In this document: one piece after another, positions 11,286-64,000 of the stretch
How positions within the stretch are numbered: position 1 is the first letter of the stretch
Layout of the letters: every line of letters begins with the position of its first letter
DNA from: Candidatus Saccharimonadia bacterium
Lineage (GTDB): Bacteria; Patescibacteriota; SICC01
Length of the DNA: 64,000 bases
Reading direction: 5' to 3'
NCBI GenBank assembly: GCA_025449535.1
Contig: JANWJF010000001.1
Span: 549,136 to 613,135 of the forward strand
Notes under the pieces: generated by a model
The model's input: only the letters and a program-made list of their open reading frames with translations
Database searches by the model: none
Told to the model about the DNA's origin: nothing
Made by a program: the position numbers and the translations under genes

Positions 11286-11291
11286 TTCCTC

Positions 11292-11912: not shown

Positions 11913-11913
11913 T

Positions 11914-11940: not shown

Positions 11941-11952
11941 ACAAAATCTGAA

Positions 11953-12366: not shown

Positions 12367-12423
12367 GATGACCGGGGTTAATGACAGCTTAATTTACCAC
12401 TGTTAAGTCAAAAACAAAAGTAA

Positions 12424-13092
12424 TTATTGAGATCTTGGCCTTCTATTCCAGCTCCGCGCCAGGTGGCGCATCTTGGAGTGCCGGGCCAGCAGGGCGAGCG
12501 AGAGAATCGTGACGGCCGCGCCGATCAGCGCCGTCAGCCAGGGGCGGCTGACCAGGAAGTTGCCCGCGTAGACGTCCGCCGCGAGCCGGGGCGCTGCGCC
12601 GGCGACAGTCGCCAGGAGGTAGGTCCTATACCGGATCCGCAGCAGTCCGGCGAAGTAGCTGTACCAATCGAACGTGAATCCGGCGAACAGCCGCAACAGC
12701 ACGATCGACTGCCAGGTGCCGAGCAGTTCGACCTCCTTGAGGTATGCCTGGTACTCTGGCTTGCCACGGAGCCAACGCTCGCCGAGCCAGCGGGCGATCC
12801 AGAAGTTGGCTGACGCGCCTATGGCCTGGGCGGCCAGGACCAGGAGCAACCCCCACAGGGGATCGAACAGCAATCCAGCGGAGATGGTCAGCGGGCGGGT
12901 CGGCAGGGGCGGGACGACCACGCTGACCGCCACGGCCGCCGCGAAGAGCAGTGGACCGAGCAGGCCGCCGTCGAGCGCGGTGCCGTATACTTCGCGCACC
13001 AATGCCGGCACTGGCAGGAGCCAGGCCGTCGCGGACAATGCGAATAAGACGCCGAGCGTCGCGACGAGCCCCAGCCAGTGCTTCCGCGGCAT
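12424..13092 (-). CDS. TVP38/TMEM64 (DedA-related) family membrane protein
   Basis: 222 aa and multi-TM. The …ISAGLLFDPLWG…GASANFWIARWLG motif is typical of the family. Confidence 0.7.
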   Translation of the reverse strand: MPRKHWLGLVATLGVLFALSATAWLLPVPALVREVYGTALDGGLLGPLLFAAAVAVSVVVPPLPTRPLTISAGLLFDPLWGLLLVLAAQAIGASANFWIARWLGERWLRGKPEYQAYLKEVELLGTWQSIVLLRLFAGFTFDWYSYFAGLLRIRYRTYLLATVAGAAPRLAADVYAGNFLVSRPWLTALIGAAVTILSLALLARHSKMRHLARSWNRRPRSQ

Positions 13093-13093
13093 G

Positions 13094-13279
13094 CTACTCT
13101 TTGACGCCCCGGAACCCGATCAGGGCGACCAGGTAGGTCACGATACAGTTGATGATGACCATCTTCAGGATCGGCAGATCGGGGTCGATCCCGATCAGGA
13201 TCGCCGTGCCGATCCAGACCGCGGAGATCACCCCGGCGGTATACGGGTACTTGATGAAGAGGATGAAGTCCTTAAGCAT
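13094..13279 (-). CDS. small two-helix membrane protein
   Basis: 61 aa and hydrophobic. It is tightly packed between the ABC1 kinase and TVP38 genes in the same orientation. Confidence 0.45.
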   Translation of the reverse strand: MLKDFILFIKYPYTAGVISAVWIGTAILIGIDPDLPILKMVIINCIVTYLVALIGFRGVKE

Positions 13280-14727: not shown

Positions 14728-15019
14728 AACAGGCGGAACATGCGCATGGTCACGCCCGCTGCAGGAACCCTAGCAAGTACAACATGAACGTGAAGGTTAC
14801 GGTGATCGCGTACAGCTCGAAGCGCGCCCCGGTATCCAGGAAGGAGGCGATCACGAGTGACGCGATCCATACAACGACGATACTGATGAGGACGAAGAGG
14901 TACTTCAAGAAAACGCGTATTTATCTTCCCCTGTGCCTCAAGGATATCACCTTTTCTCCAAGCACCTGCCACGCCTAGGTTGCAAGTCATCAGGCATGCT
15001 ATCCTTATCCGTTCGCATT

Positions 15020-17476: not shown

Positions 17477-17495
17477 TCCCCGACACTTCACCAGC

Positions 17496-18539
17496 ATGTA
17501 TGCTGGCCGTATGGCAGCGACGCAGAAGATCAGGCTGATCCGGAACCTGGAGGGCGGCGACCTTTTCGAGCTTTTCCTGGTGTCGGCGGCCTCGACCATC
17601 CTGGTCGTCCGGGCGTACCTCAAGCTCGCGGACTATCCCCAGATCGGCGGGGACACCTTGCACATCGCGCATATGCTTCCCGGCGGGATGCTGATGGTGC
17701 TCGGCCTGATCCTGGCCCTCGGGTTCCTGAACAAGGAAGCCCGGACGCTGGCCGCCTTCCTGAGCGGCATCGGGTTCGGCCTGTTTATCGACGAGCTGGG
17801 CAAGTTCATCACCCAGGACAACGATTACTTCTTCCAGCCGACGATCGGCCTGATCTATGTGATCTTCGTCATGCTGTTCCTGCTTGCGAAGTACATCGGC
17901 GATCGCCGGGCGACGGAGCGCGAGAACCTGATTAACGCGATAGAAGCCGCCAAGGAAGTCGCGATCGGCGACTTGGACCGGGTCGAGCAACGGCGGGCGC
18001 TGGCGTATCTGAAGCAAGCGGGGGACGGCGCTATCGGCAAGAGAATCGCCGAGTTGCTCCGTGAGGCGAAGACAAACTCCCGGAACGACGAGAACCCGTA
18101 CCAGCGGATTCGCGGCTGGTTGGCCGAACGGTACGTGGGTTTGGTCGAACGACCTTGGTTCAGCCGCGCCGTCATCGCCTTCTTCGTGCTCGGATCGTCC
18201 GCTTCGCTCGTGTTGTCGGCCTACGACATCGTGGCGCGCCCGGCACAGGTATCCTTCGCCGACAAGGGGGAACTGCTCTTCTCCTCGGTCACGGGGATCC
18301 TGGTGCTGCTCGGGACCTTCCGGTTGCTGCGGCGTTCGCGACTGGCCGGATACCAGACGTTCGAGCGGGCGGTGCTCGTCTTCCTGTTCCTGACCCAGTT
18401 CTTCCTCTTCATCCAGGACGAACTGGCGGCGCTTCCCGGCCTGGCGATAGGGTTGCTGGTCCTATCCGCGCTTCACTACGCCATCCGCCAGGAACGGTAC
18501 GGCCGCAAGGTCACTCGGGCAGCCGGCTCACCCGGATGA
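17496..18539 (+). CDS. polytopic membrane protein (hypothetical)
   Basis: 347 aa with ≥6 TM helices. No recognisable catalytic motif. Confidence 0.65.
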   Translation: MYAGRMAATQKIRLIRNLEGGDLFELFLVSAASTILVVRAYLKLADYPQIGGDTLHIAHMLPGGMLMVLGLILALGFLNKEARTLAAFLSGIGFGLFIDELGKFITQDNDYFFQPTIGLIYVIFVMLFLLAKYIGDRRATERENLINAIEAAKEVAIGDLDRVEQRRALAYLKQAGDGAIGKRIAELLREAKTNSRNDENPYQRIRGWLAERYVGLVERPWFSRAVIAFFVLGSSASLVLSAYDIVARPAQVSFADKGELLFSSVTGILVLLGTFRLLRRSRLAGYQTFERAVLVFLFLTQFFLFIQDELAALPGLAIGLLVLSALHYAIRQERYGRKVTRAAGSPG

Positions 18540-19668
18540 TCCGGTCGTCCCCCTTCTGCGGCTCGCCACGGCCGTCACGGTTGGACGTCAGGATGTAGAG
18601 CGCGCCGTCGGGACCGGTCGCCACGGTCCGGATCCGCCCGAACTCGTCTTTGAACAGCTCCCGGTCATCGGACACGCGGTCATCCTCGATCGTGACTTCG
18701 TGCAGGTGCGCGTCCCGCAGCGCGCCGAAGTACAGCCTGCCGTCCTTGATCGTCAGGGAAGCCGGAGCCCAGGCGACGCTGTTGCCGCTGGAAAGGATCG
18801 GCATACCCAACCCGAAACGGCGTTCGGTGCCGGTAATCAGCGGCCAACCGTAGTTGCCGCCGCGCTCAATCCGGTTCAGCTCGTCGCGGCAGCAGAGCCC
18901 GAACTCTCCGGTCGGGCCGTGCTCGGTCGCGTACAGCCGCCCCTCCGAGTCCCAGGCAAGGCCCTGCGGGTTGCGGTGTCCGAACGACCAGACCAGGTTG
19001 TCGAACGGGTTGTCCGCCGGGACGGACCCGTCCGGGTTCATCCGGAGGATCTTTCCGGCCAGGGAGCCCTGCTCCTGGGCCAGGTCCGGATCCTGCGCGT
19101 CCCCGGTGGTGACGTACAACTTCCGGTCGGGGCCGAACCGCAACCGTCCGCCGTTGTGGTTCGCGTTGCCGGGGATGTCGTCGAGCAGGACGCGTTCGTT
19201 CACGAGCTTGTCGGCGTCATCGAGCCGGTAGCGGACCACCTGGTTGGTCAGGTCGTCGCCCGAACTCTCGCTGGCGTACAGGTAGACGAAGCGGTCCCGC
19301 TCGAAGTCCGGACTGATCGCCATGCCCTGCAGCCCGCCCTCGCCCCTGGCGACGGTCGCCAGGGTGAGCGCCGGTTCACCGCGGAGACGGTCGTTTTCCA
19401 GCACCCGCACTCGCCCGGGCCGTTCGGTCACCAGGGCCTTGGTTTTGGACAGGAACGCGATATCCCACGGGACCTCCAGTCCCCCCGCCACGGTCTCGAT
19501 TGCCGACCCGGACTGGGACACGGAAGTCGGTGAGGGCGCGGTCCGGGGGCGGTCGAACGAGCCGCCCACGACGGCGATCCCGACGGCCACTACGGTCAGC
19601 AGGCAGATCACGGCTATGGCCAGGTTTCGCATATTAGCCGGTATCTCACTTCTGGACGTGGATTGCAA
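18511..19668 (-). CDS. PQQ-dependent soluble sugar dehydrogenase family (GSDH/YliI-like beta-propeller), secreted
   Basis: N-terminal signal peptide. The …HNGGRLRFGPDRKLYVTTGD… and PQGLAWDSEGRLYATEHGP…GGNYGWP motifs are characteristic of the family. Confidence 0.75.
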   Translation of the reverse strand: MQSTSRSEIPANMRNLAIAVICLLTVVAVGIAVVGGSFDRPRTAPSPTSVSQSGSAIETVAGGLEVPWDIAFLSKTKALVTERPGRVRVLENDRLRGEPALTLATVARGEGGLQGMAISPDFERDRFVYLYASESSGDDLTNQVVRYRLDDADKLVNERVLLDDIPGNANHNGGRLRFGPDRKLYVTTGDAQDPDLAQEQGSLAGKILRMNPDGSVPADNPFDNLVWSFGHRNPQGLAWDSEGRLYATEHGPTGEFGLCCRDELNRIERGGNYGWPLITGTERRFGLGMPILSSGNSVAWAPASLTIKDGRLYFGALRDAHLHEVTIEDDRVSDDRELFKDEFGRIRTVATGPDGALYILTSNRDGRGEPQKGDDRIIRVSRLPE

Positions 19669-20417
19669 TGGAGCGGGTTCCGAACGTCGCTAGCTATACT
19701 GGCACCATGCGGCTGGGAAAACTCATCGCCACGTCCGGGATGGCTTCGCGACGCCGGGCCGTCGAACTCGTGAAGACGGGTGCGGTCCGGGTGGACGGAC
19801 GGGTCGAACGGGACCCGGCGGTCGACGTGTCTCCGGATGTCACGGTCAGCGTCGAAGGCAAACGTCTGCGTCGCGAACCGCTTCGCCACTACATCCTGCA
19901 CAAGCCGGTCGGCGTCGTCTCCACGGCAGCCGACACCCATGGTCGGCGGACGGTCACCGACCTGGTCCCCGCGGAAACGCGTGTCTATCCGGTCGGTCGA
20001 CTGGATGCCGATTCCTCCGGACTGGTCCTGCTTACGAACGACGGCGACCTGGCGAACCGGCTTACCCATCCGCGGTACGGGATCGCGAAGACCTACCGGG
20101 TGACCTTCGAAGGCATGCTGGACGGGAAGGCCCTGGATCGGCTGCGGCGCGGCATCCGGCTGCGCGAAGGCGATCGTTACGTCGTCACCAAGCCGGCGGA
20201 CGTCCGGGTCGTCCGGTCGGGTCGTGGCAGCACCACCGCCGAATTGACCATCCGGGAAGGACGGAACCGCCAGATCCGGCGGATGGGAGACGCGGTCGGC
20301 CATCCGGTCACGAACCTGGTCCGAATCCGGATGGGGTCGCTGTCCCTGGGTCGCCTGCCGAAAGGCAAGTACCGGACGCTTTCGCCATCCGAACTGAAGG
20401 AGCTACGGAATCTCTGA
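19668..20417 (+). CDS. RsuA/RluB-family pseudouridine synthase (S4 domain + catalytic domain)
   Basis: An S4-like N-terminus (GKLIATSGMASRRRAVELVKTGAVRVDG) precedes the catalytic motif VYPVGRLDADSSGLVLLTNDGDL. The start may be the internal ATG at 19707. Confidence 0.85.
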   Translation: MERVPNVASYTGTMRLGKLIATSGMASRRRAVELVKTGAVRVDGRVERDPAVDVSPDVTVSVEGKRLRREPLRHYILHKPVGVVSTAADTHGRRTVTDLVPAETRVYPVGRLDADSSGLVLLTNDGDLANRLTHPRYGIAKTYRVTFEGMLDGKALDRLRRGIRLREGDRYVVTKPADVRVVRSGRGSTTAELTIREGRNRQIRRMGDAVGHPVTNLVRIRMGSLSLGRLPKGKYRTLSPSELKELRNL

Positions 20418-20426
20418 CGCGTTCGG

Positions 20427-20891
20427 TTACTCGGTGCGGTACCGGAACGCCAGCGCCAGCCCGCCGAACAGGTAGCCGATCAACAGGCCGGTAATGCCGA
20501 GGGCGTCGACCATGCTCGGATCGATCAGCCGTCCGATGACCTGCACGACGACGATGTACGCCACCAGGGCGAACAAGAGCGAGCTCGAGAGCGCGCCGTA
20601 CCGTCGGATCTTCGGCCAGGCCACCGCCCAGATGATCCCGATGAACGCCCAGACCACGAAGTGGATCGCGGAACCGATCAGCCAGTCGAGGCCGAGCTTA
20701 GGTGACTCGATGGCGTCCGGGCCGAGCACCGACGCGGAGAGGAACGAACCAAAGTCCGCCGCCGACCCGTCGCCCAGCGCGCCGACCAACAACATCCAGG
20801 TCCAGACCACCGCCCCGGCGAACAATCCGGCCAGCAGGCCCCGGTCCAGCTTCGGCACATGCTTACGTTCTACGACGTTCACTTGCGGCAT
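20427..20891 (-). CDS. membrane protein (hypothetical, 4 TM)
   Basis: 154-aa hydrophobic ORF. Confidence 0.55.
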   Translation of the reverse strand: MPQVNVVERKHVPKLDRGLLAGLFAGAVVWTWMLLVGALGDGSAADFGSFLSASVLGPDAIESPKLGLDWLIGSAIHFVVWAFIGIIWAVAWPKIRRYGALSSSLLFALVAYIVVVQVIGRLIDPSMVDALGITGLLIGYLFGGLALAFRYRTE

Positions 20892-20945
20892 ACGGCTATC
20901 ATACTCGATATACTAAAAAATGGTCCCGACTTCGTTTCACAACAC

Positions 20946-21019
20946 GCCGCCTTAGCTCAGTTGGCCAGAGCAGTCCCTTCGTAAGGGAAAGGTCCCCGGT
21001 TCGAATCCGGGAGGCGGCT
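20946..21019 (+). tRNA. tRNA-Thr (anticodon CGT)
   Basis: Acceptor GCCGCCT/AGGCGGC, anticodon loop ttCGTaa and T arm ggtccccggttcgaatccggg. One G-A mismatch lies at the base of the anticodon stem. Confidence 0.8.
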
Positions 21020-21056
21020 CAAGGAATTCGCAGGATTCCGGAATCAGGTCGATACC

Positions 21057-21734
21057 GTGTCGGATAAGCTCAAACATATCATCAAGGCCCAGCGGATTAC
21101 CGAACGGGTGTTCGAGGACCTACTGAAGGAAATCCATGCCGGCCGGACGGAAATCGAAATCCGTGACCGGCTGCTCGACCTTGCGAAATACCATGGGGCC
21201 AGCGGCCATGCTTTCGATCCTAAAGTGGGGGCGGGCCGTAATGCTGCGGATCCACATGTCGAGCCGACCGACCGGAAGCTTCGCCCCGGTCAGCTCCTCC
21301 TGATCGACATGGGTGCTACCTACGGGGGGTACTGTTCGGATATGACCCGGATGGTCGCGATCGGGAAGCCGTCCAGTGAGGCGAGGAAGGCCTATGGAAT
21401 CGTCCTGCGGGCCCAACAAGCGGCGATCCGAGCCGCGAAGCCCGGGCTGACCGGGAAAGAACTCGACGCGGTCGCGCGGGATGTCATCAGGCGAGCGGGA
21501 TACGGGAAGCGCTTCATACATGCGCTCGGACACGGCATCGGCCGGAAGCTTCACCAGGACCCGCGGTTGACGCCCCTTCGGAAGACGCGGCTCAAGCCCG
21601 GCGACGTCGTCACCGTCGAACCCGGCATCTACGTGCCCGGCCGGTTCGGAGTACGGGTGGAAGACATGCTACTGATCACGCCGCGCGGGAATCGCAACCT
21701 TACTCGTACGCCCAAGAAGCTATGGATCCTGTGA
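21057..21734 (+). CDS. M24 family metallopeptidase catalytic domain (Xaa-Pro/Met aminopeptidase-like, short form)
   Basis: The pita-bread metal-ligand pattern is seen in …LIDMGATYGGYCSDMTRM…HALGHGIG…VTVEPGIY…VRVEDMLLIT. Confidence 0.75.
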   Translation: MSDKLKHIIKAQRITERVFEDLLKEIHAGRTEIEIRDRLLDLAKYHGASGHAFDPKVGAGRNAADPHVEPTDRKLRPGQLLLIDMGATYGGYCSDMTRMVAIGKPSSEARKAYGIVLRAQQAAIRAAKPGLTGKELDAVARDVIRRAGYGKRFIHALGHGIGRKLHQDPRLTPLRKTRLKPGDVVTVEPGIYVPGRFGVRVEDMLLITPRGNRNLTRTPKKLWIL

Positions 21735-21749
21735 TACCATTGCACGTTC

Positions 21750-22261
21750 ATGAGATTCGAACGCGGTAACTTCGGCGTCGATACGGTGGATGGACGGGTA
21801 CTGTCCGTCCTGGTCTACACGCAGCCTCAGATGGCGACGAGACTCCTCTGCGAACATATGCGCCGGCCCGGATTCGACCACGCCCTCGCGGAGCAGGTGA
21901 TGCCGTATCTCGACCGGATCAAAAACGACTACATGGTCCGCGAGGTGGTGGAAACAGGAAGGCTTCCGAGGATCCCTGCGTACGCTTGGCGTTCGCTGAT
22001 CAGATCGGCATGGTGGCGCGACGGGACCGGAACGACGCCTACGCCTTGCTCAGTGCGGCGTGCTTGGAAGACCGGTCCGCGATGCCTGACCTGGTCCGGG
22101 CCGGATTGCAGGCGGTCCAGCGGGACGCTCCCGAGGAATACCACTTCCTGGTCAAGAAGGGGCTCCACGAGATGCAGAAGGAGCTCAGGCCGGGCGCGCT
22201 CGCCCGGCGCCAGCGAATCAATCGCCGGTTCCGCCGGGCGCTCGAAGCGATAGGGCAGTAA
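21750..22261 (+). pseudogene. hypothetical gene split over two frames (possible frameshift or two short ORFs)
   Basis: Frame 0 reads MRFERGNF…RLPRIPAYAW and degrades into low-complexity sequence. Frame 2 from ~21965 reads …LAFADQIGMVARRDRNDAYALLSAACLEDRSAMPDLVRAGLQAV… to 22261 and looks protein-like. Confidence 0.4.
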
Positions 22262-22278
22262 GCTAAACTGGACGGTGC

Positions 22279-22349
22279 GCGGGTATCGTATAGTGGCATT
22301 ACGCGTGCTTCCCAAGCACGAAAGAGGAGTTCGATTCTCCTTACCCGCT
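22279..22349 (+). tRNA. tRNA-Gly (anticodon CCC)
   Basis: Acceptor GCGGGTA/TACCCGC, anticodon stem cgtgc/gcacg with loop ttCCCaa, and a short variable loop. Confidence 0.85.
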
Positions 22350-22358
22350 CAACGAACA

Positions 22359-54933: not shown

Positions 54934-55526
54934 TCCGTCGCGGCCGATTCGATCGGGTTTTCGGCATACGCCCGAAATCCAGTCGGGACTTCCACCACAC
55001 CGTCCGGTGTATCAATGTGTTCCGCGTCCGGAGGCAGGGTGACTTCCAGTCCTTCCCAATTCGGCGGCGGCTCGTAATATCCTGAGACGACCAAGGACTC
55101 GCTTTGTTCAGTCAGTGCGACGATCGTGTAAAAAGATTCCGGCGGCAACGGTACTTCCCAGCCAGGTGCCAGGATAGTCTGGTCTACCAGGACGTTCCCA
55201 GGCTTCATAGTGACCAGTAGTCCATACCCCCGGTGGACGGTCAGACTTTTCTCCGGAGCCGCCTGGGTCCAGTAGGCTAGCTCCGTACGGTTGCCTGGCA
55301 GGATCACGGCCGCGTTTCGGCTGGCCCGGGCCTCATCACCGTCAGAATAGGTGATTTCTAAGTAGGTGTATGCGGCGCCATCCGATTCTTCCTGGCTTTC
55401 GCTGATCGCTACCCGTCGATCCGGGTGATCGGCGAGGTCGGCCGCAACGTCGATACCGTACGCAGCGGCGATTTCCTCAGGTGAATGCTCGGCTCCAGGC
55501 GCAATCATGGCTGACAATTGTAGCAA
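54930..55526 (-). CDS. hypothetical protein (cupin-like beta-rich?)
   Basis: 198-aa ORF convergent with ymdB, with coding-like composition. Confidence 0.45.
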   Translation of the reverse strand: MLQLSAMIAPGAEHSPEEIAAAYGIDVAADLADHPDRRVAISESQEESDGAAYTYLEITYSDGDEARASRNAAVILPGNRTELAYWTQAAPEKSLTVHRGYGLLVTMKPGNVLVDQTILAPGWEVPLPPESFYTIVALTEQSESLVVSGYYEPPPNWEGLEVTLPPDAEHIDTPDGVVEVPTGFRAYAENPIESAATD

Positions 55527-55669
55527 AGGAAAAATCCCTTGTCTAGAGGCTTTTTCATCAATCAGCTATCCACACGTACTCGGTTGACAGATTTTTTCCC
55601 ATGGCCATACTGGGGTTACCAAGCAAAAGGCTTTGGTTAACCTATTCCCTACGAGAGGAGGTGACGCAC

Positions 55670-55963
55670 ATGGCAGGTGCAACGATGAACAAGCAAGACC
55701 TCATCGAGACGATGGCGAACCGTGCCAAGATCTCGAAGAAGTCCGCTACGGTGGCGCTTGAGGCGCTGACCGATTCGATCACGAAGACGCTCCAGAACCG
55801 GGGCAAGGTATCGATCAGCGGCTTTGGCGCGTGGTACGCGAACACGCGGGCGCCGCGCATGGGCGTGAACCCGCAGAACACCAGCGAACGGATCAACATT
55901 CCGGAGACGACGGTGGCGAAGTTCACTCCCGGCAAGAACCTGAAGGAAGCCGTCCGCAAGTAA
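55670..55963 (+). CDS. hup: HU-family DNA-binding protein
   Basis: MNKQDLIETMANRAKISKKSATVALEALTDSITKTLQNRGKVSISGFG…RAPRMGVNPQ…KFTPGKNLKEAV is a canonical HU. A GGAGG RBS lies upstream of ATG 55670; an alternative start is at 55685. Confidence 0.85.
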   Translation: MAGATMNKQDLIETMANRAKISKKSATVALEALTDSITKTLQNRGKVSISGFGAWYANTRAPRMGVNPQNTSERINIPETTVAKFTPGKNLKEAVRK

Positions 55964-56037
55964 TATGGCGGACGTACGGTAGCTCTCTCGGCGGGAACGT
56001 CGAGGGGGCTTTTGTATATCGGCTAAGATTGGTACAT

Positions 56038-56111
56038 CGGGGCGTAGCGCAGCCTGGTAGCGCGCCTGCTTTGGGAGCAGGAGGTCGTCAGTTCGAATCT
56101 GACCGCCCCGA
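56038..56111 (+). tRNA. tRNA-Pro (anticodon TGG)
   Basis: Acceptor CGGGGCG/CGCCCCG, anticodon stem cctgc/gcagg with loop ttTGGga, and T arm gtcagttcgaatctgac. Confidence 0.85.
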
Positions 56112-56112
56112 C

Positions 56113-57219
56113 ATGGTGACCCGTCGGAAAATCGTATCAACATTCTTTCTGCTCGCCGTCATCGGCGGCGGGCTGCTCTACGCCGACTACCAGTCGAAGG
56201 CGATGGAGCGGCGCGACGCAGAGCGCCGCGCCGCGGTCACCGCACTCAAGCGGACGCTGGATTCCCGGAGCACGCTTCCGGCCAGGGACGGTACGCTCAA
56301 GGCGAGGGCCACCGGAGGGCTCGCCGAGCTCGGTACGGCGCCGAAGCGGCCGGAGGATACGACGATCAACTACGCTGTCTCGTTGGACGCACGGACGTAC
56401 TTCGTCTGCACGGCGCTGGAGCGCGGCGGCGCGCTCTACGCCACCCGGCAGGGTACGTTCGACGGTCCGACGGAGAGCTGCCGCCCGGACGCCGATCCCG
56501 TCGCCGTGGGCTACGTTCTGGACGCGAAGCTGACCTCCGCGGGCGCCCGGGCGTTCCTGCGCGCGGACCCGGCGTTCGTCAGCAAGGGATTCATCCAGGA
56601 GAAATGCGCGGCTACCGCTGATGACGGGCAGCTGCAGGGCTGCTTCACCGGCGACCGGATCTACCTGATCGACCTGCCGGACGAAACGATCCGTCCGGAG
56701 GTCTCGGTCACCGCGGCGCACGAGACGCTGCATGCGGCCTGGGAAGGGTTGGCGTCGGAAGAACGCGAGCACCTGACCCGATTGCTCGAGAATCTTGCCC
56801 GGAAGCGCCCCGACCTGCAACGCGAGGCGGATTCGTACGATGAGGAAAGCCGGATCAACGAGCTGCATTCGATCGCAGGGACCGAGATCAAGGACGTCGG
56901 CAAGGAACTCGAGCGGCATTACGCGGAGTTCTTAAGCGACCGCGGGCTGATCGTGAAGCGGCACCTGGACTATGAGAAGGTCATTGACGGCCTGGAGGCG
57001 GAGATCGAGCGGCTCAAGGATGAGCTCACGGCGCTCGAGGCGCGCGGCCAGGCGCTCCTGGATAGCGGCGACATCGACGCGTACAACGCGTTCGTGGCGG
57101 AGTACAACTCCCGCGCGCCGGGAATGGTCGCGGAGATCAACGCCAAGGTCGACCGTTTCAACCGGCTCACGGAACACACCCGCCCGGACGGCCGGGTGGC
57201 CCCCGCCTCCGCGCGGTGA
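56113..57219 (+). CDS. membrane-anchored hypothetical protein with HExxH motif and C-terminal coiled-coil
   Basis: The ATG lies 2 nt after the tRNA-Pro 3' end. N-terminal TM helix, AHETLH motif, and a C-terminal coiled-coil (IERLKDELTALEARGQALL). Confidence 0.55.
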   Translation: MVTRRKIVSTFFLLAVIGGGLLYADYQSKAMERRDAERRAAVTALKRTLDSRSTLPARDGTLKARATGGLAELGTAPKRPEDTTINYAVSLDARTYFVCTALERGGALYATRQGTFDGPTESCRPDADPVAVGYVLDAKLTSAGARAFLRADPAFVSKGFIQEKCAATADDGQLQGCFTGDRIYLIDLPDETIRPEVSVTAAHETLHAAWEGLASEEREHLTRLLENLARKRPDLQREADSYDEESRINELHSIAGTEIKDVGKELERHYAEFLSDRGLIVKRHLDYEKVIDGLEAEIERLKDELTALEARGQALLDSGDIDAYNAFVAEYNSRAPGMVAEINAKVDRFNRLTEHTRPDGRVAPASAR

Positions 57220-57246
57220 GTTAGAATAGGGACCGTTATACGCGGG

Positions 57247-57310
57247 TGTACTCTGTACATCCGCGGCGTCGTTCGGAAATGCTAGAGTAAACTCTGCGTT
57301 TCCTCACTCC
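57247..57310 (+). promoter_or_regulatory. conserved two-hairpin module upstream of tRNA-Gly(TCC)
   Basis: tgtacTCTgtaca … TCGGAAATGctagagtAAactctgCGTTTCCTCAC, as in the other three loci. Confidence 0.5.
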
Positions 57311-57312
57311 TT

Positions 57313-57384
57313 GCGGGTGTCGTATAACGGCTATTACACCAGCCTTCCAAGCTGGGAATGCGGGTTCGATTCCCGCCACCCGCT
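57313..57384 (+). tRNA. tRNA-Gly (anticodon TCC)
   Basis: Acceptor GCGGGTG/CACCCGC and anticodon stem ccagc/gctgg with loop ctTCCaa. CCA is encoded. Confidence 0.85.
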
Positions 57385-57503
57385 CCACGCATCCGACCAC
57401 GGTCCATCCCTCGTAGCCTTGACTCAGGCACGGATTCGTGCTACTATTGGTCAATTTTCCGCTCCGAAGGCACGCGGCGCGCGAAGATAAAAAACCAATA
57501 CGC

Positions 57504-57830
57504 ATGCTTGCCACCGTCTTTCAAGGAGTCTTCGACACCACCTATGACATCACGTTCCGGGACCGCCTGCCGACCTTCGGCACGGGCCGCGACAAGATCA
57601 CCAAGGGATACATCGACCCGTTGAACGATCGCATCGTGATCCGGCGGGGACTTTCCGCGGACGACCGGGCGCTCACCTTGCTCCATGAGGTCGTCCACGA
57701 CTGCTATCCGGACTGGAGCGAACGGGACGTGGAGGAATGCGCGCGATTCGTCTACGACAACCTCTCGAACTCCGACCAGGGCATCGTCCAGTTCCTGGCC
57801 ACCGATCCCCAAGAGACCAGATCACGATAA
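57504..57830 (+). CDS. small HExxH zinc-metallopeptidase-like protein (SprT/ImmA-like)
   Basis: LLHEVVHDCYPDW carries the HExxH motif. Start chosen at the internal ATG (MLATVFQG…). 109 aa. Confidence 0.45.
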   Translation: MLATVFQGVFDTTYDITFRDRLPTFGTGRDKITKGYIDPLNDRIVIRRGLSADDRALTLLHEVVHDCYPDWSERDVEECARFVYDNLSNSDQGIVQFLATDPQETRSR

Positions 57831-57836
57831 CCGTCC

Positions 57837-57858
57837 AACCGACCGCAGGCGGTTTTTT
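57837..57858 (+). terminator. Rho-independent terminator (aaccg…cggtt hairpin + TTTTTTG)
   Basis: ccgtccaaccgaccgcaggcggttttttgc lies immediately after the stop at 57830. Confidence 0.65.
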
Positions 57859-57885
57859 GCTGCACGGATATACTACGGTTGCGCC

Positions 57886-57948
57886 CCGGTACTACGTACC
57901 GGAGCTCGGCACTCGGAAATGCTAGAGTGAACTCTGCATTTCTCTCGC
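57886..57948 (+). promoter_or_regulatory. conserved two-hairpin module upstream of the tRNA at 57954
   Basis: ccggtacTACgtaccgg … TCGGAAATGctagagtGAactctgCATTTCTCTCGC. Confidence 0.5.
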
Positions 57949-57953
57949 TTCTC

Positions 57954-58025
57954 GCCCCGGTAGCTCAGCGGAAGAGCAGGAGACTTCTAAGCTCAAGGCC
58001 GTAGGTTCGAATCCTACCCGGGGCA
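57954..58025 (+). tRNA. tRNA-Arg-like (anticodon TCT) with atypical anticodon stem
   Basis: Perfect acceptor (GCCCCGG/CCGGGGC), D and T arms. The anticodon loop CTTCTAA is identical to E. coli tRNA-Arg(UCU), but the anticodon stem GGAGA/GCTCA pairs only 3 of 5. Confidence 0.6.
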
Positions 58026-58042
58026 CATGGCCCAGGACGACG

Positions 58043-58077
58043 CCGGGAACCGGACGCGGTTCCCGGTCTTCGTTTTG
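58043..58077 (+). terminator. Rho-independent terminator (ccgggaaccg-GACG-cggttcccgg + TCTTCGTTTTG)
   Basis: A 10-bp GC-rich stem is followed by a T-rich tract 18 nt after the tRNA. Confidence 0.75.
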
Positions 58078-58129
58078 TCCGGGCGATGAGCGAGGGCATA
58101 ATGGTTGTGGGCATGGCATGGTGGCTATA

Positions 58130-58194
58130 GCTCAACAGGTTAGAGCGCCGGTTTGTGGTACCGGAGGTTGTGGGTTCGAGCCCCATTAGCCACC
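58130..58194 (+). tRNA. tRNA-His (anticodon GTG) with encoded G-1
   Basis: The extra 5' G pairs with discriminator C. Anticodon stem ccggt/accgg with loop ttGTGgt. Upstream promoter TTGTCC-N17-ATAATG. Confidence 0.85.
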
Positions 58195-58212
58195 CAATCA
58201 AGCAAGTATATT

Positions 58213-58713
58213 ATGTCTACAATACTCGAAACACCAGACTTCATTGTCAAAGCCCCCGATCAGCCGCATCACTCAAGGGAGAATGGGGGTCATGTGGTTA
58301 TTACTCCAAAGCAGCGCTTTGGGCATCGCACTGAAATGTCTACCGACCTCGCCACGAAACTAATGTATCTGACCATGATTGCGGGTGAGGCCGTGACTAA
58401 AGTTATGAAAGAGGCTGGACTCAAAGTAGTGAGGATCAACTATCAGGACAATGGCAACTGGGCGTACAAAGAACCCAAGAAAGAGCCACATCTGCATGTC
58501 CACCTTTACGTTCGCACGACTGGGGAACAGCACCCCGACAATGACTCACGCTTTCAAGCGTTTCCTGATGCCCTAGTTTTTCCAGATCGAGGTACTGGAT
58601 ATTACGAGAAGTTTCAGCCCCTCACTGATGAAGATTGCCAAGCAATCAATTCGGAGATGGTATCGCTGGCAAGGAGGGAAAAGTACCGGGACTTGGAGTT
58701 AGGGATCGCGTAA
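58213..58713 (+). CDS. HIT-like nucleotide hydrolase/transferase family protein (lower-GC island)
   Basis: The histidine triad HLHVHLY sits in a ~165-aa protein directly 3' of tRNA-His. GC is markedly lower than the flanks. Confidence 0.55.
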   Translation: MSTILETPDFIVKAPDQPHHSRENGGHVVITPKQRFGHRTEMSTDLATKLMYLTMIAGEAVTKVMKEAGLKVVRINYQDNGNWAYKEPKKEPHLHVHLYVRTTGEQHPDNDSRFQAFPDALVFPDRGTGYYEKFQPLTDEDCQAINSEMVSLARREKYRDLELGIA

Positions 58714-58765
58714 TTGCAGTTCTAACGTCGTCTGTGCAGACGCCTAAAACACGTAACTGCACGCG

Positions 58766-60025
58766 ATGACACATAATATGTCCGATTCAGTAAATATTGT
58801 CGGTTCAGGAATAGTCGGGCTTATTTCAGCGTATAAAGTTCATCAAAAGTTACGCATACCGGTCAGGGTATATGATGCTGGGCCCGATCCGAGGGCCCAG
58901 AGGAACCACTTCCATTCTTTTGGTGCCAGCTACAGCGGTCTAGATGCTCGTCATATTTCGATAACGGAAACCGGCCCGTGGACGGATGCTAGTCGCGAGG
59001 AATTGATTGAGCGAAGTCCCGCCGAGGGTGGTTGGAACTGTCTGGCTTCCGTTACTAAGAATCAATACGAGGCAGCGTGGCAACAAGAATTTAAATCGAT
59101 TGCCCGAGATGCCGATCGGCACGCTACGAATTCCCAGCAAGTCTTTGCAGCCAACAAGGAAGGCTTAATGGCGTGGGCAGAACTCCATCGCCGCAAGCCA
59201 AAGTTATTTGCGCCGATTTTCGATACTAATTACTTGACGATTATTTGCACGAATGAAGCCGACTTAGTCGACGAGTACGAAGGGGAAAAGCGGTTGGACG
59301 AGGGTCGCGTCAAGAATCTTCAACACACTATGCCCGTCGGGTACGAACCTCTCGACCAAAAGTTCCGGGACGGTATCCTGCACGGCTCATTCACGGTGGC
59401 CGGTAATGCGTATAACATTCGGAAACTGTGCGTCAACGTAATCGACTATTTGGAAGAGCATGGTGTTGAGTTTCACTGGCGAAATCCTATCAGCTTAGTT
59501 GACGGCGGTGACCGTGTTACGGAGTTGCCACCCGGCGATATTGTTTGGGCAAGCGGTGTCTCGGGAGGGATGTCATCCTTCCTTGCTGACAAGAAAATAC
59601 TGCTCCAAGGTGTTCTGGGCTGCTGGGTTGATATACCAAACCAGGGATTTAGCCACCCATTCAAAATTTACGGCAAAGAACCGACGAATTTCATTAATGC
59701 CACTCCCATCGGAAACAGGTTGCTACTTTCGGGAGGATATGGATGGGTTGGTACGCGCGCCCATGCCGAGGTCACCAAACTAGCCAAACCAACGATGCAG
59801 GCTTTTCTACATGAAGTCTCAAAGTTCTTCTTTGATGGCCGGGCTCTATCGGACAAGTATCCTCTAGCGACATGCATTCGCCCTTCGTTGCCGTCTGGGG
59901 TGACCCAAATAGAGGAGATTACTTACCAGGATCGGAGAGTCGTTACATGCATCGGCCACTCCGCCGGAGGGTTCACCCAATCTGCCCATGTAGCTGACGT
60001 GGTAGTGGAAAAGTTATCAAGCTAG
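58766..60025 (+). CDS. FAD-dependent oxidoreductase (DAO/glycine-oxidase-like)
   Basis: N-terminal dinucleotide-binding VNIVGSGIVGLISAY. 419 aa. GC is low. Confidence 0.65.
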   Translation: MTHNMSDSVNIVGSGIVGLISAYKVHQKLRIPVRVYDAGPDPRAQRNHFHSFGASYSGLDARHISITETGPWTDASREELIERSPAEGGWNCLASVTKNQYEAAWQQEFKSIARDADRHATNSQQVFAANKEGLMAWAELHRRKPKLFAPIFDTNYLTIICTNEADLVDEYEGEKRLDEGRVKNLQHTMPVGYEPLDQKFRDGILHGSFTVAGNAYNIRKLCVNVIDYLEEHGVEFHWRNPISLVDGGDRVTELPPGDIVWASGVSGGMSSFLADKKILLQGVLGCWVDIPNQGFSHPFKIYGKEPTNFINATPIGNRLLLSGGYGWVGTRAHAEVTKLAKPTMQAFLHEVSKFFFDGRALSDKYPLATCIRPSLPSGVTQIEEITYQDRRVVTCIGHSAGGFTQSAHVADVVVEKLSS

Positions 60026-60110
60026 AGTGCTAGGGATAAGCATCAGGCATCAGGTTTCATGGTGAGAACTGGAGCTGCGCGAACTTTCTTCCAGAAGCCT
60101 AAAGGAAATC

Positions 60111-60659
60111 ATGAACGAGCAAGACATCCTTAATCTCATCCGCGGCAACCGTTGGATGATGGATGTGCTGCAAGCCGCGCAGCGCGCCGACCTGCCGGAT
60201 TGGGTCATCGGTGCCGGCTTCGTGCGCAACCCGGTGTGGGACCATTTGCATGGCCGCGAACCAGTGCTTGATACGGATGTAGACCTTGTCTACTTCGACC
60301 GAGGTGCCGCGGACAAGGAAGCGGAGAAAAGGCATGAAGCCAAGCTGAAGGGCGATTTTCAAGCGGATTGGTCCGTCAAGAACCAAGCCCGGATGCATCT
60401 TAAGCACGGCGACGATCCGTACGAGAACACCGAGGACGCGTTGGCGCATTGGGTAGAGACGGCAACGTGCATCGGAGTCCGCCTGGACCGGAGCGGAGAC
60501 CTCATTCTGGTCGCGCCCCACGGTATCGACGACTTGGTCAATCTGGTGGTTCGTCCCGGCCCGCTGCACTCGAAGCCGGAGCAGGTGGTCGAACGGATTC
60601 GGGAGAAGCATTGGTTGGAGCGGTGGCCGAAGCTGCGGCTGACAGGTCTGCCGGAATGA
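60111..60659 (+). CDS. Pol-beta-superfamily nucleotidyltransferase family protein
   Basis: IGAGFVRNPVWDHLHGREPVLDTDVDLVYFD fits the G[GS]…DxD nucleotidyltransferase signature. Confidence 0.6.
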   Translation: MNEQDILNLIRGNRWMMDVLQAAQRADLPDWVIGAGFVRNPVWDHLHGREPVLDTDVDLVYFDRGAADKEAEKRHEAKLKGDFQADWSVKNQARMHLKHGDDPYENTEDALAHWVETATCIGVRLDRSGDLILVAPHGIDDLVNLVVRPGPLHSKPEQVVERIREKHWLERWPKLRLTGLPE

Positions 60660-61147
60660 ACAAGTACCTCGTCGTCCACTTCCTAGACTCGCTTTCCGAA
60701 GGCGAGCGGTTCGAGTCATCCGCATGGCCACTGCATCTGACGCTTATCCCTCCATTTTCTACCAATGCGGAACGGTCTGACTTGGAACAGTTCCTGCGAA
60801 CCGTCAGTCAGAGGAGGCCGATTGATTTGAAAGTCTCTGGCAAATCCTTATTCGGCGTTCGTCAGGACATTCCGGTCATGGAAGTGGTCCTGCTTCCTGA
60901 GCTGCGAGATTTGCACGAAGCGGTGGTCAACGCCTTGGAAGAGCAGGATGTCAGGCACGGAAGCCCGGCCCATATCAGGGAAGGATTCCGGCCGCACGTC
61001 ACGATACAAAAGAGCGGGACGGCCGAGCCGGGGCAGACGGTCCGCATGGATGCCATTACCTTGGTCGGCTACCCGACCGACAGGACCCGGGAGGTCCTTA
61101 CACATTTTCCGCTCGGCTCCGGCGTAGTACCATCGAATGATGGCTGA
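60656..61147 (+). CDS. 2H phosphoesterase superfamily protein (LigT / 2'-5' RNA ligase / cyclic phosphodiesterase-like)
   Basis: Two HxT/Sx motifs (WPLHLTLIPPF and RPHVTIQK) at the expected spacing. The ATG overlaps the stop of the nucleotidyltransferase gene. Confidence 0.6.
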   Translation: MNKYLVVHFLDSLSEGERFESSAWPLHLTLIPPFSTNAERSDLEQFLRTVSQRRPIDLKVSGKSLFGVRQDIPVMEVVLLPELRDLHEAVVNALEEQDVRHGSPAHIREGFRPHVTIQKSGTAEPGQTVRMDAITLVGYPTDRTREVLTHFPLGSGVVPSNDG

Positions 61148-61231
61148 AGACCTACCCCGCAGTATGCGCTGCCGTTTTGACTGGCTGTTCAAGCGGCAGA
61201 AGAACCGCTAGTTCTGCGGTACGATTGACCC

Positions 61232-62149
61232 GTGAGCAAACAAAAACGACCGGCCATCAAGACGCAGGGCCTGACCAAGTTCTATGGCAAGACCCGTGGC
61301 ATCGAGGACCTCAGCCTGACCGTCGAGCAGGGGGAGACATTCGGGTTCCTGGGGCCGAACGGCGCCGGCAAGAGCACGACGATCAACCTCCTGATGGGCT
61401 TCCGCAAGCCGACCGACGGCAAGGCGTTGGTGCTCGGGAAGCCGGTCGGGCCGGATGCGATCGAGACGCGGCGCCGGATCGGGTTCATGCCCGGCGAGCT
61501 GTCGTTGTACGGCCAGATGAAGGCGCACGCGTTGCTGGATTACTTCGCCCGGCTGCGTGGGAACGTCGAGGATGGATACATCCACGAGCTCGCGGAACGG
61601 TTCGACCTCGACCTGAGCAAGAAGGTGAAGGACCTCTCGAAGGGCAACAAGCAGAAGGTCGCGTTGGTGTCCGCTTGGATGCACAAGCCGGACCTGCTGA
61701 TCCTCGACGAACCTACCAGCGGCTTGGACCCGATCGTCCAAGAAGAGTTCCGCGATCTGGTCAGCGAAGCGAAGCGCCGGGGCGTTACCGTGTTTCTCTC
61801 GTCCCACGTACTGTCCGAGGCCGAGCACCTCTGCGACCGGGTCGGCGTCGTCAAGGAAGGACGCCTGATCGCGGTCGAGCGGATCGCGACGCTTCACGAG
61901 CGGGGTATCCGGCACGTCGAGGTGCAGTTCGCGACCAAGCCGTGGCCGGACATGCTGAAGCGGATCGATGGGATCCATGACGTTCGCGTCGAAGGCAGGA
62001 CCATGCGGTTCACCGTCCACGGTTCGATTGACAAGGTGATCAAGCTGCTCGCGAGGCATCGGATCATCAACCTGAGCAGCGACCCGGCCAGCCTGGAGGA
62101 ATTCTTCTTCGACGAGTACGAAGAGACGGTCAAGGAGGCCGGGACATGA
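61232..62149 (+). CDS. ABC transporter ATP-binding protein
   Basis: Walker A GPNGAGKST, signature LSKGNKQKV and Walker B LLILDEPTSGLD. Confidence 0.9.
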   Translation: MSKQKRPAIKTQGLTKFYGKTRGIEDLSLTVEQGETFGFLGPNGAGKSTTINLLMGFRKPTDGKALVLGKPVGPDAIETRRRIGFMPGELSLYGQMKAHALLDYFARLRGNVEDGYIHELAERFDLDLSKKVKDLSKGNKQKVALVSAWMHKPDLLILDEPTSGLDPIVQEEFRDLVSEAKRRGVTVFLSSHVLSEAEHLCDRVGVVKEGRLIAVERIATLHERGIRHVEVQFATKPWPDMLKRIDGIHDVRVEGRTMRFTVHGSIDKVIKLLARHRIINLSSDPASLEEFFFDEYEETVKEAGT

Positions 62150-62949
62150 ACGACCTCGGCGCTATCTTCCTGCGGACGCTCAGTGACTCACGCCGGAGCA
62201 TGTTCTGGTGGTCACTCGGCATGTTCGCGTTGATTTTCTTCGTGATGGCCCTGTATCCGACGTTCAAGGAGAATGCCGGGCAACTCAATGAGCTGTACCA
62301 GTCGTCCAAGGAAATCGTCGCGCTGGTCGGCACGCAGGACATGTCCACGGGGGTCGGCTTCCTGACCCAGGAAGTATTCTCGATCATGGCGCCGTTATTC
62401 TTGATCATCTACGGTATCCAACTGGGCGCGTCGGCGATCGGACGCGAGGAGGGCCGGGGGACGCTGCCGCTGCTCCTGGCCAACCCGATCTCCCGCAGCC
62501 GGGTCGTCTACGAGAAGTACGCCGCGATGAAGGCCGCGTTGCTGGTGGTGGCGGCTGTCGTGTTCGTGACCATCGCTCCGTTGGCACCGGTATTCGAGAT
62601 GAAGGACGTCGAGCTCGCCAAGCTGGCCACTGCGTCGCTGATGACGTTCCTGATCGGGCTGGCGTTCGGGTCGATCGCGTTCCTGGTCGGCGCCGCGACG
62701 GGTAACCGGGGACTGGCCGTCGGGGCTACTAGCGCGTTGGGTCTCGGCATGTATCTGCTGTACGTAATGGAACAGCTGGTGGATTCGTTGGAACCGTATC
62801 GCTGGCTGAGTCTATTCCACTATTACGTCCCGGACAACGTCCTGACCGACTTTCCCACGTTCGGAAACGTCCTTGTGCTGATCGGCGTCAGCGTGGCCGG
62901 ATTCGGCCTTTCCTTGCTGGTATTCCCCCGGCGCGATGTCCGGGCCTGA
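62146..62949 (+). CDS. ABC-2 family transporter permease
   Basis: 267 aa with 6 TM helices, translationally coupled to the ATPase gene. Confidence 0.75.
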   Translation: MNDLGAIFLRTLSDSRRSMFWWSLGMFALIFFVMALYPTFKENAGQLNELYQSSKEIVALVGTQDMSTGVGFLTQEVFSIMAPLFLIIYGIQLGASAIGREEGRGTLPLLLANPISRSRVVYEKYAAMKAALLVVAAVVFVTIAPLAPVFEMKDVELAKLATASLMTFLIGLAFGSIAFLVGAATGNRGLAVGATSALGLGMYLLYVMEQLVDSLEPYRWLSLFHYYVPDNVLTDFPTFGNVLVLIGVSVAGFGLSLLVFPRRDVRA

Positions 62950-62971
62950 GGCTATACTGTAAGCACTCGCG

Positions 62972-63040
62972 CCCGTATGCTCGCATACGGGTCGCTCCTC
63001 GTTCGGAAATGCTAAAGTGAACTTTGCATTTCACTCACTC
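62972..63040 (+). promoter_or_regulatory. conserved two-hairpin module upstream of tRNA-Arg(TCG)
   Basis: cccgtatgCTCGcatacggg … TCGGAAATGctaaagtGAactttgCATTTCACTCAC. Confidence 0.5.
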
Positions 63041-63043
63041 GTT

Positions 63044-63117
63044 GCGCCCGTAGCTCAGCGGATTAGAGCACCTGGCTTCGGACCAGGGGGTCGGAGGTTC
63101 GAATCCTTCCGGGCGCG
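63044..63117 (+). tRNA. tRNA-Arg (anticodon TCG)
   Basis: Acceptor GCGCCCG/CGGGCGC and anticodon stem cctgg/ccagg with loop ctTCGga. The T arm is ggaggttcgaatccttc. Confidence 0.75.
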
Positions 63118-63155
63118 CAGGACATGGTCCGCGGAGAGGTACGTATACTGGGCAC

Positions 63156-64000
63156 ATGAAGGTAGCCGTCATCGGAGGGGGCCGTTCCGGCGAACACGAG
63201 GTGTCGTTGGAATCCGCGAAGTCAATCCGCCAAGGGCTACGGGAGGCCGGGCATGAAGTGCATTACGTGGAGATCGCCAAGGACGGGACCTGGCGCCACG
63301 GTGACGAGGTCTTGGCCATCGAGCCCGGCAAGGGCCTGTTGGGCGCGGACGTCGTGTTCCCGGCGTTGCACGGTCCGTACGGTGAGGACGGGACGCTCCA
63401 GGGACTGCTGGAGCTGGTCGACGTGCCGTACGTCGGGAGCGGCCTGCACGCTTCCGCCACCTGTATGGACAAGGCGGTGTTCAAGGAGTTGATGGCTCAC
63501 GAGGGGCTTCCCCAAGTAGAGTTCGTCACCTTGCGGCACCCGATGAGCGAGGAGGACCGGCGGCGCATCGAAGGACTCGGCTGGCCGGTCTTCGTGAAGC
63601 CGTCCCGATTGGGTTCGTCGGTCGGCATCAGCAAGGCCGGGAACGCTGCCGAACTGGAAGCGGCACTGACGGAGGCGTTCCGCCGCGACTCGGTAGTACT
63701 GGTCGAACGGGCGTCGTCCGGCCGGGAGATAGAGGTCGGCATCCTGGGCGTCCAGGACCTGACGGTCTCGGAACCGGGCGAGATCATCGTGCCGGGCGAC
63801 GGTTGGTACGACTATGAGGCGAAGTACACGCCGGGGTCCGCGGAAGTCGTGATTCCGGCGAACCTACCGAAGGTCGCGGCTGACAAGGCCAAGGAGTTTG
63901 CCGAACGGGCGTTCCGGGCGACCGGGTGTTCCGGGATGGCCCGTATCGACTTCTTCTTGGAAGGTGAACAGGCGTTGGTCAGCGAGATCAACACGATCCC
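63156..64000 (+). CDS. ddl: D-alanine--D-alanine ligase, 3' end beyond window
   Basis: MKVAVIGGGRSGEHEVSLESAKSI…VVFPALHGPYGEDGTLQGLLELVDVPYVGSG…VFVKPSRLGSSVGIS… The frame is open to the window end. TATACT lies 6 nt before the ATG. Confidence 0.85.
   Translation, partial: MKVAVIGGGRSGEHEVSLESAKSIRQGLREAGHEVHYVEIAKDGTWRHGDEVLAIEPGKGLLGADVVFPALHGPYGEDGTLQGLLELVDVPYVGSGLHASATCMDKAVFKELMAHEGLPQVEFVTLRHPMSEEDRRRIEGLGWPVFVKPSRLGSSVGISKAGNAAELEAALTEAFRRDSVVLVERASSGREIEVGILGVQDLTVSEPGEIIVPGDGWYDYEAKYTPGSAEVVIPANLPKVAADKAKEFAERAFRATGCSGMARIDFFLEGEQALVSEINTI

Follow-up and report, generated by a model that had tools for sequence, protein, structure and literature searches.

An NTP_transf_6 nucleotidyltransferase and a YjcG/LigT-like 2H phosphoesterase encoded by overlapping genes in a Patescibacteria lineage: probably a facultative pairing of separately distributed enzymes

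The window analysed here is a 64,000-nucleotide stretch of contig JANWJF010000001.1 (Candidatus Saccharimonadia bacterium), in which the gene of a minimal Pol-beta-fold nucleotidyltransferase (NTase) runs directly into that of a 2H phosphoesterase. On balance, we favour reading the two as a co-transcribed, probably translationally coupled pair of separately distributed enzymes and not as a conserved two-component system, and we lean equally towards products that are expressed together yet separable in function. Elsewhere the two families are hardly ever found side by side, and the locus is therefore an ordinary lineage-specific gene pair rather than a new conserved system. Both proteins are new members of catalogued, functionally orphan families, and their adjacency, which does not amount to a new system, matters little as it stands. 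In the proposed mechanism, the NTase would use an NTP to add a nucleotide to a 3'-OH, with RNA as the most plausible acceptor, and the 2H enzyme would open 2',3'-cyclic phosphates or 2'-5' linkages. The pairing is best read as facultative, and both enzymes probably act on RNA 3' ends.

Genomic organization of the locus

The pair sits in a block of six + strand genes bounded by tRNA-His (58121-58195) on one side and tRNA-Arg (63044-63118) on the other. The block opens with the genes of a HIT-like protein (58213-58713) and a DAO-type FAD oxidoreductase (58766-60025), continues with the NTase gene (60111..60659; 182 aa) and the 2H phosphoesterase gene (60656..61147; 163 aa), and closes with those of an ABC ATPase (61232-62149) and an ABC-2 permease (62146-62949). 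At the level of Pfam and NCBIfam annotation, no ligase, kinase, phosphatase, sensor or effector is found among the genes from 58213 to 62949, and an Rfam scan of 55500-63500 returns tRNAs only. Both reading frames of the pair are real genes and not chance ORFs, as follows from their Pfam scores and from AlphaFold models with mean pLDDT above 95.

The two coding regions meet in the tetranucleotide ATGA (60656..60659, +), which, as read from the sequence, forms a 4-base stop/start overlap between the NTase stop TGA (60657-60659) and the 2H start ATG (60656-60658), exactly where the preliminary description had placed it. This overlap makes translational coupling of the two genes probable, and the co-expression that had been proposed from it is likewise graded as probable, the same ATGA overlap being present in a related contig (L002). 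The GenBank record of the locus (L169, GCA_036560925.1, 'Patescibacteria group bacterium') sets the 2H start at GTG 60623, which would give a 174-aa protein and a 37-base overlap; the ATG at 60656 is favoured by the homologue alignment, in which the family N-terminus reads M-x-K-Y-V, and by L002. Taken alone, the overlap is weak evidence of a functional link, because exact 4-base overlaps are frequent here, occurring in 6 of the 40 co-directional neighbour pairs in the window (crude gene set) and joining pairs without an evident functional connection, such as a LysM protein with an M16 peptidase and an unknown protein with YmdB.

The pair is flanked by a gap of 85 bases between the oxidoreductase and NTase genes, which holds a putative Shine-Dalgarno-like AGGA (60103..60106, +) 4 bases 5' of the NTase ATG, and by a gap of 84 bases between the 2H and ABC genes, so that a bicistronic unit is plausible, with promoter and terminator scans at chance level. 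Specifically, a promoter scan of the 85-base gap found nothing, and a consensus scan places a weak terminator-like hairpin (61159..61172, +) just 3' of the 2H stop. Lying before the ABC transporter genes, the hairpin could be where the bicistronic unit terminates; by itself it is not significant, since the terminator scan of the region returned 5 sites with 4.9 expected by chance.

Extension of the unit to the upstream HIT and FAD-oxidoreductase genes was considered and rejected. These genes have a GC content of 0.48-0.52 against about 0.6, neither is present in the syntenic relatives, and HIT homologues elsewhere lie beside unrelated neighbours.

The NTase is a single-domain member of the NTP_transf_6 family

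Analysis assigns the NTase to PF06042 (NTP_transf_6; COG3575, DUF925), which it matches with 191.6 bits (E 1e-56; cut-off 25 bits) over positions 2-158 of the 159 in the Pfam model. It is homologous to Streptococcus pneumoniae NP_344798.1 (PDB 2la3, 'CCA-adding enzyme head domain'), with E 2e-25 in phmmer, E 6e-42 in a profile comparison and about 34% identity. Family and fold are the same in both proteins, the 2la3 protein being likewise a single domain of about 180-190 aa with conserved G-x-G and DxD motifs. Structurally, the AF2 model of the NTase (mean pLDDT 95.2) matches 2la3 at a Foldseek E of 4.6e-14 with TM 0.83/0.80. The next matches are the heads of class II CCA- and A-adding enzymes and poly(A) polymerase I (PAP I), at E 9e-6 to 2e-3 and probability 1.0; the matched structures 4wc2, 1vfg, 3h37, 5hc9 and 3aqk align with TMq of about 0.5-0.57 and target TM of 0.22-0.32. 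MNT antitoxins, ANT(2'') and a CD-NTase match the model only at E values of at least 0.04, and the CD-NTase CdnC reaches just E 0.54 and TMq 0.26.

The window NTase and the class II tRNA nucleotidyltransferases (CCA-adding, A-adding and poly(A) polymerase I) thus have the fold of the catalytic head in common, whereas the class II enzymes are about 350-460 aa long and the NTase, at 182 aa, lacks their neck, body and tail domains. In class II enzymes, these domains hold the tRNA and select C or A. No Pfam match to PolyA_pol (PF01743) is found in the NTase, and an hhalign comparison of the family alignment with E. coli Cca yields a probability of 1.8% with the wrong region aligned. Because no meaningful alignment was obtained with hhalign, the relationship to the CCA head rests on structure only, and the protein is a PF06042 member and not a class II enzyme proper.

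The Pol-beta signature, hG[GS] followed by DxD carboxylates, is present in the NTase as G34-A35-G36 and D56-x-D58. Among 31 homologues, G34, A35, G36 and D58 are invariant and D56 is conserved in at least 90%. At the level of sequence, the catalytic signature of the superfamily is therefore kept, and family knowledge suggests that the enzyme moves an NMP from an NTP to a hydroxyl. Because the fold is that of a CCA head, its acceptor would most plausibly be an RNA 3'-OH.

The family is widespread, a single scan recovering it from at least 596 species, and the 2la3 structure has been solved since 2011. The hG[GS] and catalytic carboxylate signature is stated for DUF925/COG3575 by Kuchta et al. 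(2009; PMC2794190), who place the family in group XX as probably active NTases and assign it no function. A literature search for functional data on PF06042, DUF925, COG3575 or 2la3 found nothing newer than that paper. Plasmid matches exist for the NTase, annotated just as 'nucleotidyltransferase family protein', and tblastn finds no phage homologues of either the NTase or the 2H protein.

The 2H protein belongs to a YjcG/LigT-like group

The downstream protein matches PF13563 (2_5_RNA_ligase2) with 55.1 bits (cut-off 27; E 1.2e-14) and PF02834 with 26 bits (cut-off 23.3). The family calls of the preliminary description, a minimal Pol-beta-fold NTase and a 2H phosphoesterase, are thus both right. 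The two catalytic motifs are H27-L-T29 and H114-V-T116; across 50 homologues, H27 and H114 are invariant and T29 and T116 are conserved in at least 90%, with W24 and H87 also invariant in this subfamily alignment. The active-site mapping that had been suggested for the pair accordingly finds the DxD of the NTase and both HxT motifs of the 2H protein present and conserved among the 31 and 50 homologues, respectively.

The AF2 model of the 2H protein has a mean pLDDT of 95.7, and its Foldseek matches comprise E. coli LigT, B. subtilis YjcG, plant CPDase, Deinococcus CPDase and Usb1. LigT, YjcG and CPDase are the best of these, at E 1e-5, ahead of human and yeast Usb1 (E about 1e-3, TM 0.56-0.67); poxvirus cGAMP PDE and MHV ns2 match weakly (E 4e-3 to 6e-2), and AKAP18 does so as well. 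With the family profile, B. subtilis YjcG (2d4g) is the sole clear match in the PDB (E 6e-7). YjcG and E. coli LigT/ThpR resemble the window protein in their 2H fold and their two HxT motifs. Unlike ThpR, however, the window protein scores 23.4 bits against the TIGR02258 ThpR equivalog, below its cut-off of 65.7, and falls in a distinct subfamily with its own usual gene context, efp-2H-tlyA. Its sequence identifies it as a 2H phosphoesterase of the YjcG/LigT-like group that keeps the catalytic signature, and, judging from family knowledge, it would hydrolyse 2',3'-cyclic phosphodiesters or 2'-5' bonds.

Members of the subfamily are about 160 aa long and carry WPLHxT and RPHVT motifs. An exhaustive search yields 763 cluster representatives, and a word-indexed homologue search gave 2. 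Domain fusions within it amount to one 2H-GNAT, and none joins a 2H domain to an NTase.

A separate observation concerns the surroundings of these genes. In 48 of the 80 metagenome loci of the subfamily, efp lies directly upstream of the 2H gene and/or the gene of a TlyA-like S4+FtsJ methyltransferase lies directly downstream. At the other loci the neighbours are mixed and include His_Phos_1 phosphatases, an APH kinase, a deaminase and LysR regulators. A literature search for 2H together with EF-P or TlyA found no functional data; the efp-2H-tlyA context may be a more useful clue to the role of small 2H enzymes.

The two families are almost never neighbours

Co-occurrence was surveyed from both sides. 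On the NTase side, with one genome per species, at least 596 loci were found and the best 80 were taken together with some 4 kb of sequence to either side; these 80 cover Patescibacteria, Alphaproteobacteria, Bacillota, Pseudomonas, Actinomycetota and one archaeon. A 2H gene lies within about 4 kb at none of these best 80 NTP_transf_6 loci (2H subfamily HMM, E<=1e-3), and the same HMM run over them at E<=50 with filters off gives nothing credible. The 75 immediate same-strand neighbours of these NTase genes are heterogeneous, the commonest being GNAT (7), followed by DnaN (3), glyoxalase (3) and His_Phos_1 (2). On the 2H side, 80 metagenome loci of the subfamily were found with a 10-sequence alignment, and no NTP_transf_6 gene is nearby in any of them. 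These counts apply to 80 loci per side, to metagenome contigs of which many are short, and to a 2H HMM that is specific to the subfamily.

The pair recurs in one place only, the 1.1-kb contig L002 of a close relative, in which the NTase is 75% identical, the 2H protein is 56% identical and the 4-base overlap recurs. That pair and overlap are retained despite this divergence argues for some selective maintenance within the clade. The preliminary description had envisaged a dedicated system, either a synthase/eraser pair or an RNA-end healing and sealing system, and had itself made this idea depend on the families co-occurring elsewhere. With 0 of 80 loci on each side and L002 as the only exception, such a dedicated system does not hold up, and for sealing there is in addition no ligase adjacent to the pair.

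The slot holding the 2H gene varies among syntenic relatives

Comparison of the window with three longer relatives reveals a common backbone made up of a 374-aa protein, a 114-aa HExxH protein, the NTase and Ddl. The order in the window is HIT, DAO, NTase, 2H and ABC. In L003 and L004 it is SKI, PDT, a hydrolase, CYTH, NTase, a 190-aa small-NTase-like protein with a weak ANT(2'') match, and ABC; the ABC operon is common to the window and these two, and the ABC ATPase of L003 is 85% identical. L001 carries PDT, RHH-PIN, peptide deformylase, NTase and Ddl. In L165 the NTase gene stands between two HAD genes with a 4-base overlap at each junction, and in L166 and L167 it stands between a CYTH gene and an unknown gene. 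L002 holds the NTase and 2H genes, after which a gene begins that resembles the one for the 190-aa small-NTase-like protein of L003.

The gene after the NTase in these syntenic relatives is thus a 2H gene, a second small NTase gene, a HAD hydrolase gene or nothing. Across this Patescibacteria lineage the NTase gene persists as a stable part of the backbone, and the gene downstream of it can be exchanged. The position between the NTase gene and the ABC-transporter operon is variable, and 2H is one of the genes that fill it. It follows that the two genes stand together through an operon arrangement specific to the lineage, with no obligate dependence of either protein on the other.

Functional interpretation of the pair

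The predicted enzymology of the two proteins would be complementary, with the 2H enzyme resolving cyclic-phosphate ends and the NTase extending 3'-OH ends, and this counts against the preferred reading of co-expressed but separable enzymes. An unlikely alternative, though the most attractive of the cooperative models, is joint healing and re-extension of RNA (tRNA) 3' ends as a split analogue of E. coli Cca. In this scheme, 2',3'-cyclic phosphates arising from metal-independent RNases or spontaneous cleavage would be opened by the 2H enzyme, the remaining monoester would be removed by an unlinked phosphatase, and the CCA-head-like NTase would then re-add the nucleotide or nucleotides. E. coli Cca resembles the window pair in that it both adds nucleotides and takes off 2',3'-cyclic phosphate, its HD domain clearing the cyclic phosphate before CCA repair (PMC6961547); it differs in that its phosphohydrolase is a fused HD domain, whereas the window encodes a separate 2H protein. 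A similar logic, in which 2H enzymes, phosphatases and NTases take part, is described for RNA repair: 2H enzymes clear cyclic 2'-3' ends before repair, and NTases restore lost nucleotides (PMC7824862). Repair cassettes (Pnkp/Hen1, RtcB and the RlaP NTase with RNA ligases) are like the window in combining an end-healing phosphoesterase with a nucleotide-restoring NTase (PMC7824862, PMC12776372); unlike them, the window locus has no ligase, polynucleotide kinase or phosphatase, its linkage is not conserved, and its NTase belongs to PF06042, whereas RlaP belongs to PF10127.

Several observations are in line with end repair. The nearest structural relatives of the NTase include CCA- and A-adding enzymes bound to tRNA, pair and overlap are retained in L002, and the usual efp-2H-tlyA context of the 2H subfamily is translation-related. 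An encoded CCA is absent from 6 of the 9 tRNA genes in the window, so that CCA addition matters in this organism. Against repair stand the absence of co-occurrence outside one small clade, the syntenic relatives that keep the NTase without a 2H gene, and an operon without phosphatase, kinase or ligase. Moreover, a 182-aa NTase without neck, body and tail would have to bind RNA without tRNA-binding domains, and its sequence profile matches neither PolyA_pol nor E. coli Cca. More specifically, it is doubtful that NTP_transf_6 and the YjcG-like 2H protein form a minimal split RNA/tRNA 3'-end repair module in this small Patescibacteria clade; if they did, this would be the first functional assignment for the PF06042 orphan family.

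Two further models are less likely than repair. In the first, the proteins would write and erase on one RNA 3' end, the NTase tailing it and the 2H enzyme trimming it to leave a cyclic phosphate, or a toxin-like NTase would be neutralised by the 2H protein. A eukaryotic parallel exists in TUT1, which tails U6 snRNA, and Usb1, which trims it and leaves a cyclic phosphate; the likeness of this system to the window is that of a conceptual Pol-beta NTase/2H pairing only, and TUT1 and Usb1 act on a specific snRNA. The tight coupling of the genes and the match of the 2H model to human and yeast Usb1 are consistent with this model, but co-occurrence is missing here as well, and LigT, YjcG and CPDase match the 2H protein better than Usb1 does. 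As for the toxin variant, the NTase is unlike a toxin in need of an antidote, because in hundreds of species it stands by itself or beside unrelated genes. Taken together, these points make the writer/eraser or toxin model very unlikely.

The second model, a second-messenger synthase with a degrading phosphodiesterase in the manner of OAS/PDE or CBASS, is disfavoured. OAS and cGAS do belong to the Pol-beta-fold NTases, and 2'-5' oligoadenylate or cGAMP is the substrate of some 2H enzymes; the antagonism of OAS-RNase L with 2H PDEs (AKAP7, MHV ns2) is one of host against virus, and, as with TUT1/Usb1, its resemblance to the window is conceptual. The parallel with OAS/PDE that had been drawn at the outset loses force through the CCA-head fold of the NTase, which is not OAS/cGAS-like, and there is no effector at the locus. 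What favours signalling is a generic possibility and the weak 2H fold matches to poxvirus cGAMP PDE and MHV ns2, and with a CdnC match no better than that given above, no sensor or effector gene among the neighbours (HIT protein, FAD oxidoreductase, ABC exporter), no link of either protein to defence or phages (no PADLOC or PHROG match, no phage homologues) and no conserved co-occurrence, this model is the least probable of all.

A further point against the preferred reading, that of a facultative pair of co-expressed enzymes, is that other close relatives of the NTase are also coupled to phospho-enzymes, namely CYTH and HAD proteins. The 2H, CYTH and HAD couplings could hint at a recurring theme of an NTase with a phosphohydrolase. 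Combined with the CCA-head fold, this occasional phospho-enzyme coupling provides an inexpensive and testable lead towards RNA 3'-end chemistry.

Gene neighbourhoods of the 2H phosphoesterase subfamily

The genes surrounding the window protein's 2H subfamily follow a conserved efp – 2H – tlyA-like order in 48 of the 80 metagenome loci, where efp, a tlyA-like gene or both flank 2H; the genes often abut or overlap one another, and the tlyA-like gene encodes an S4+FtsJ rRNA 2'-O-methyltransferase. This arrangement occurs at L090, L092, L104, L108–L110, L114, L116–L117 and L120–L164, with the 2H gene at approximately 4001–4470 in loci with full flanks. The conservation of this order points towards a function connected with translation or rRNA for the small 2H enzymes of this subfamily. 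A literature search for 2H proteins with EF-P or TlyA found no report of it.

At six metagenome loci, the 2H gene is immediately preceded by one for a His_Phos_1 histidine phosphatase (L097, 3243–3989; L112, 3414–3938; and four similar loci). Such a pairing of cyclic phosphodiesterase with phosphomonoesterase is what full 3'-end healing would be expected to require. Additionally, P0157 (313 aa), a protein from the exhaustive search for subfamily representatives, carries a 2H subfamily domain fused to a C-terminal GNAT acetyltransferase domain, the sole such fusion found. GNATs are also the commonest immediate same-strand neighbours of NTP_transf_6 genes, accounting for 7 of 75 such genes at the 80 best of at least 596 loci, a frequency that possibly reflects the mere abundance of GNATs.

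Regarding the start of the window's 2H gene, GenBank places it at GTG 60623, yielding a 174-aa product and a 37-base overlap with the NTase gene. The N-termini of homologues favour ATG 60656 (163 aa), and the GTG annotation is therefore probably a mis-called start codon.

Phospho-enzymes linked to NTP_transf_6 relatives

In the closest NTP_transf_6 relatives, the gene shows tight linkage to phospho-enzymes other than 2H. A CYTH triphosphatase-like gene lies immediately upstream of the NTP_transf_6 gene at three relatives' loci (L003, 4427–5501; L004, 3568–4642; L166, 158–1236), while at a fourth (L165, 2–1457) HAD hydrolase genes flank it on either side with 4-base overlaps. In the E. coli annotation, the CYTH gene ygiF is located two genes away from cca, a proximity that may be coincidental. 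The slot of the window's 2H gene is filled in relatives by a 190-aa protein bearing an NTase-like signature, GIGGS...DVD (L003, 5508–6080; the start of the gene also at L002, 1038–1106), whose sole annotation is a sub-threshold Pfam match to ANT(2'') (E 0.027).

tRNA genes and upstream region

The window contains nine tRNA genes (56038–58195, 63044–63118 and within 6471–22350), five of which alternate with genes for small proteins shortly before the NTase–2H pair. By inspection, six of the nine lack an encoded 3' CCA, so the organism must have an enzyme activity that adds CCA. Elsewhere in the 64-kb window, no motif resembling class II cca was found.

Directly after tRNA-His, a HIT-like gene and a DAO-type FAD oxidoreductase gene occupy 58213–60025, with a GC content of 0.48–0.52 versus approximately 0.60 in the surroundings. 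L003 and L001, two syntenic relatives, have neither gene, and the segment looks like a small insertion beside the tRNA cluster. The HIT protein has approximately 110 homologues, mostly in Patescibacteria, with unrelated neighbours elsewhere.

Between tRNA-Gly and tRNA-Arg (57438–57830) lies the gene for a protein of 130 aa that contains the HExxH motif in the form HEVVH. The protein has no Pfam match and weak PHROG metalloprotease matches; its identity in L003 and L001 is 81–83%.
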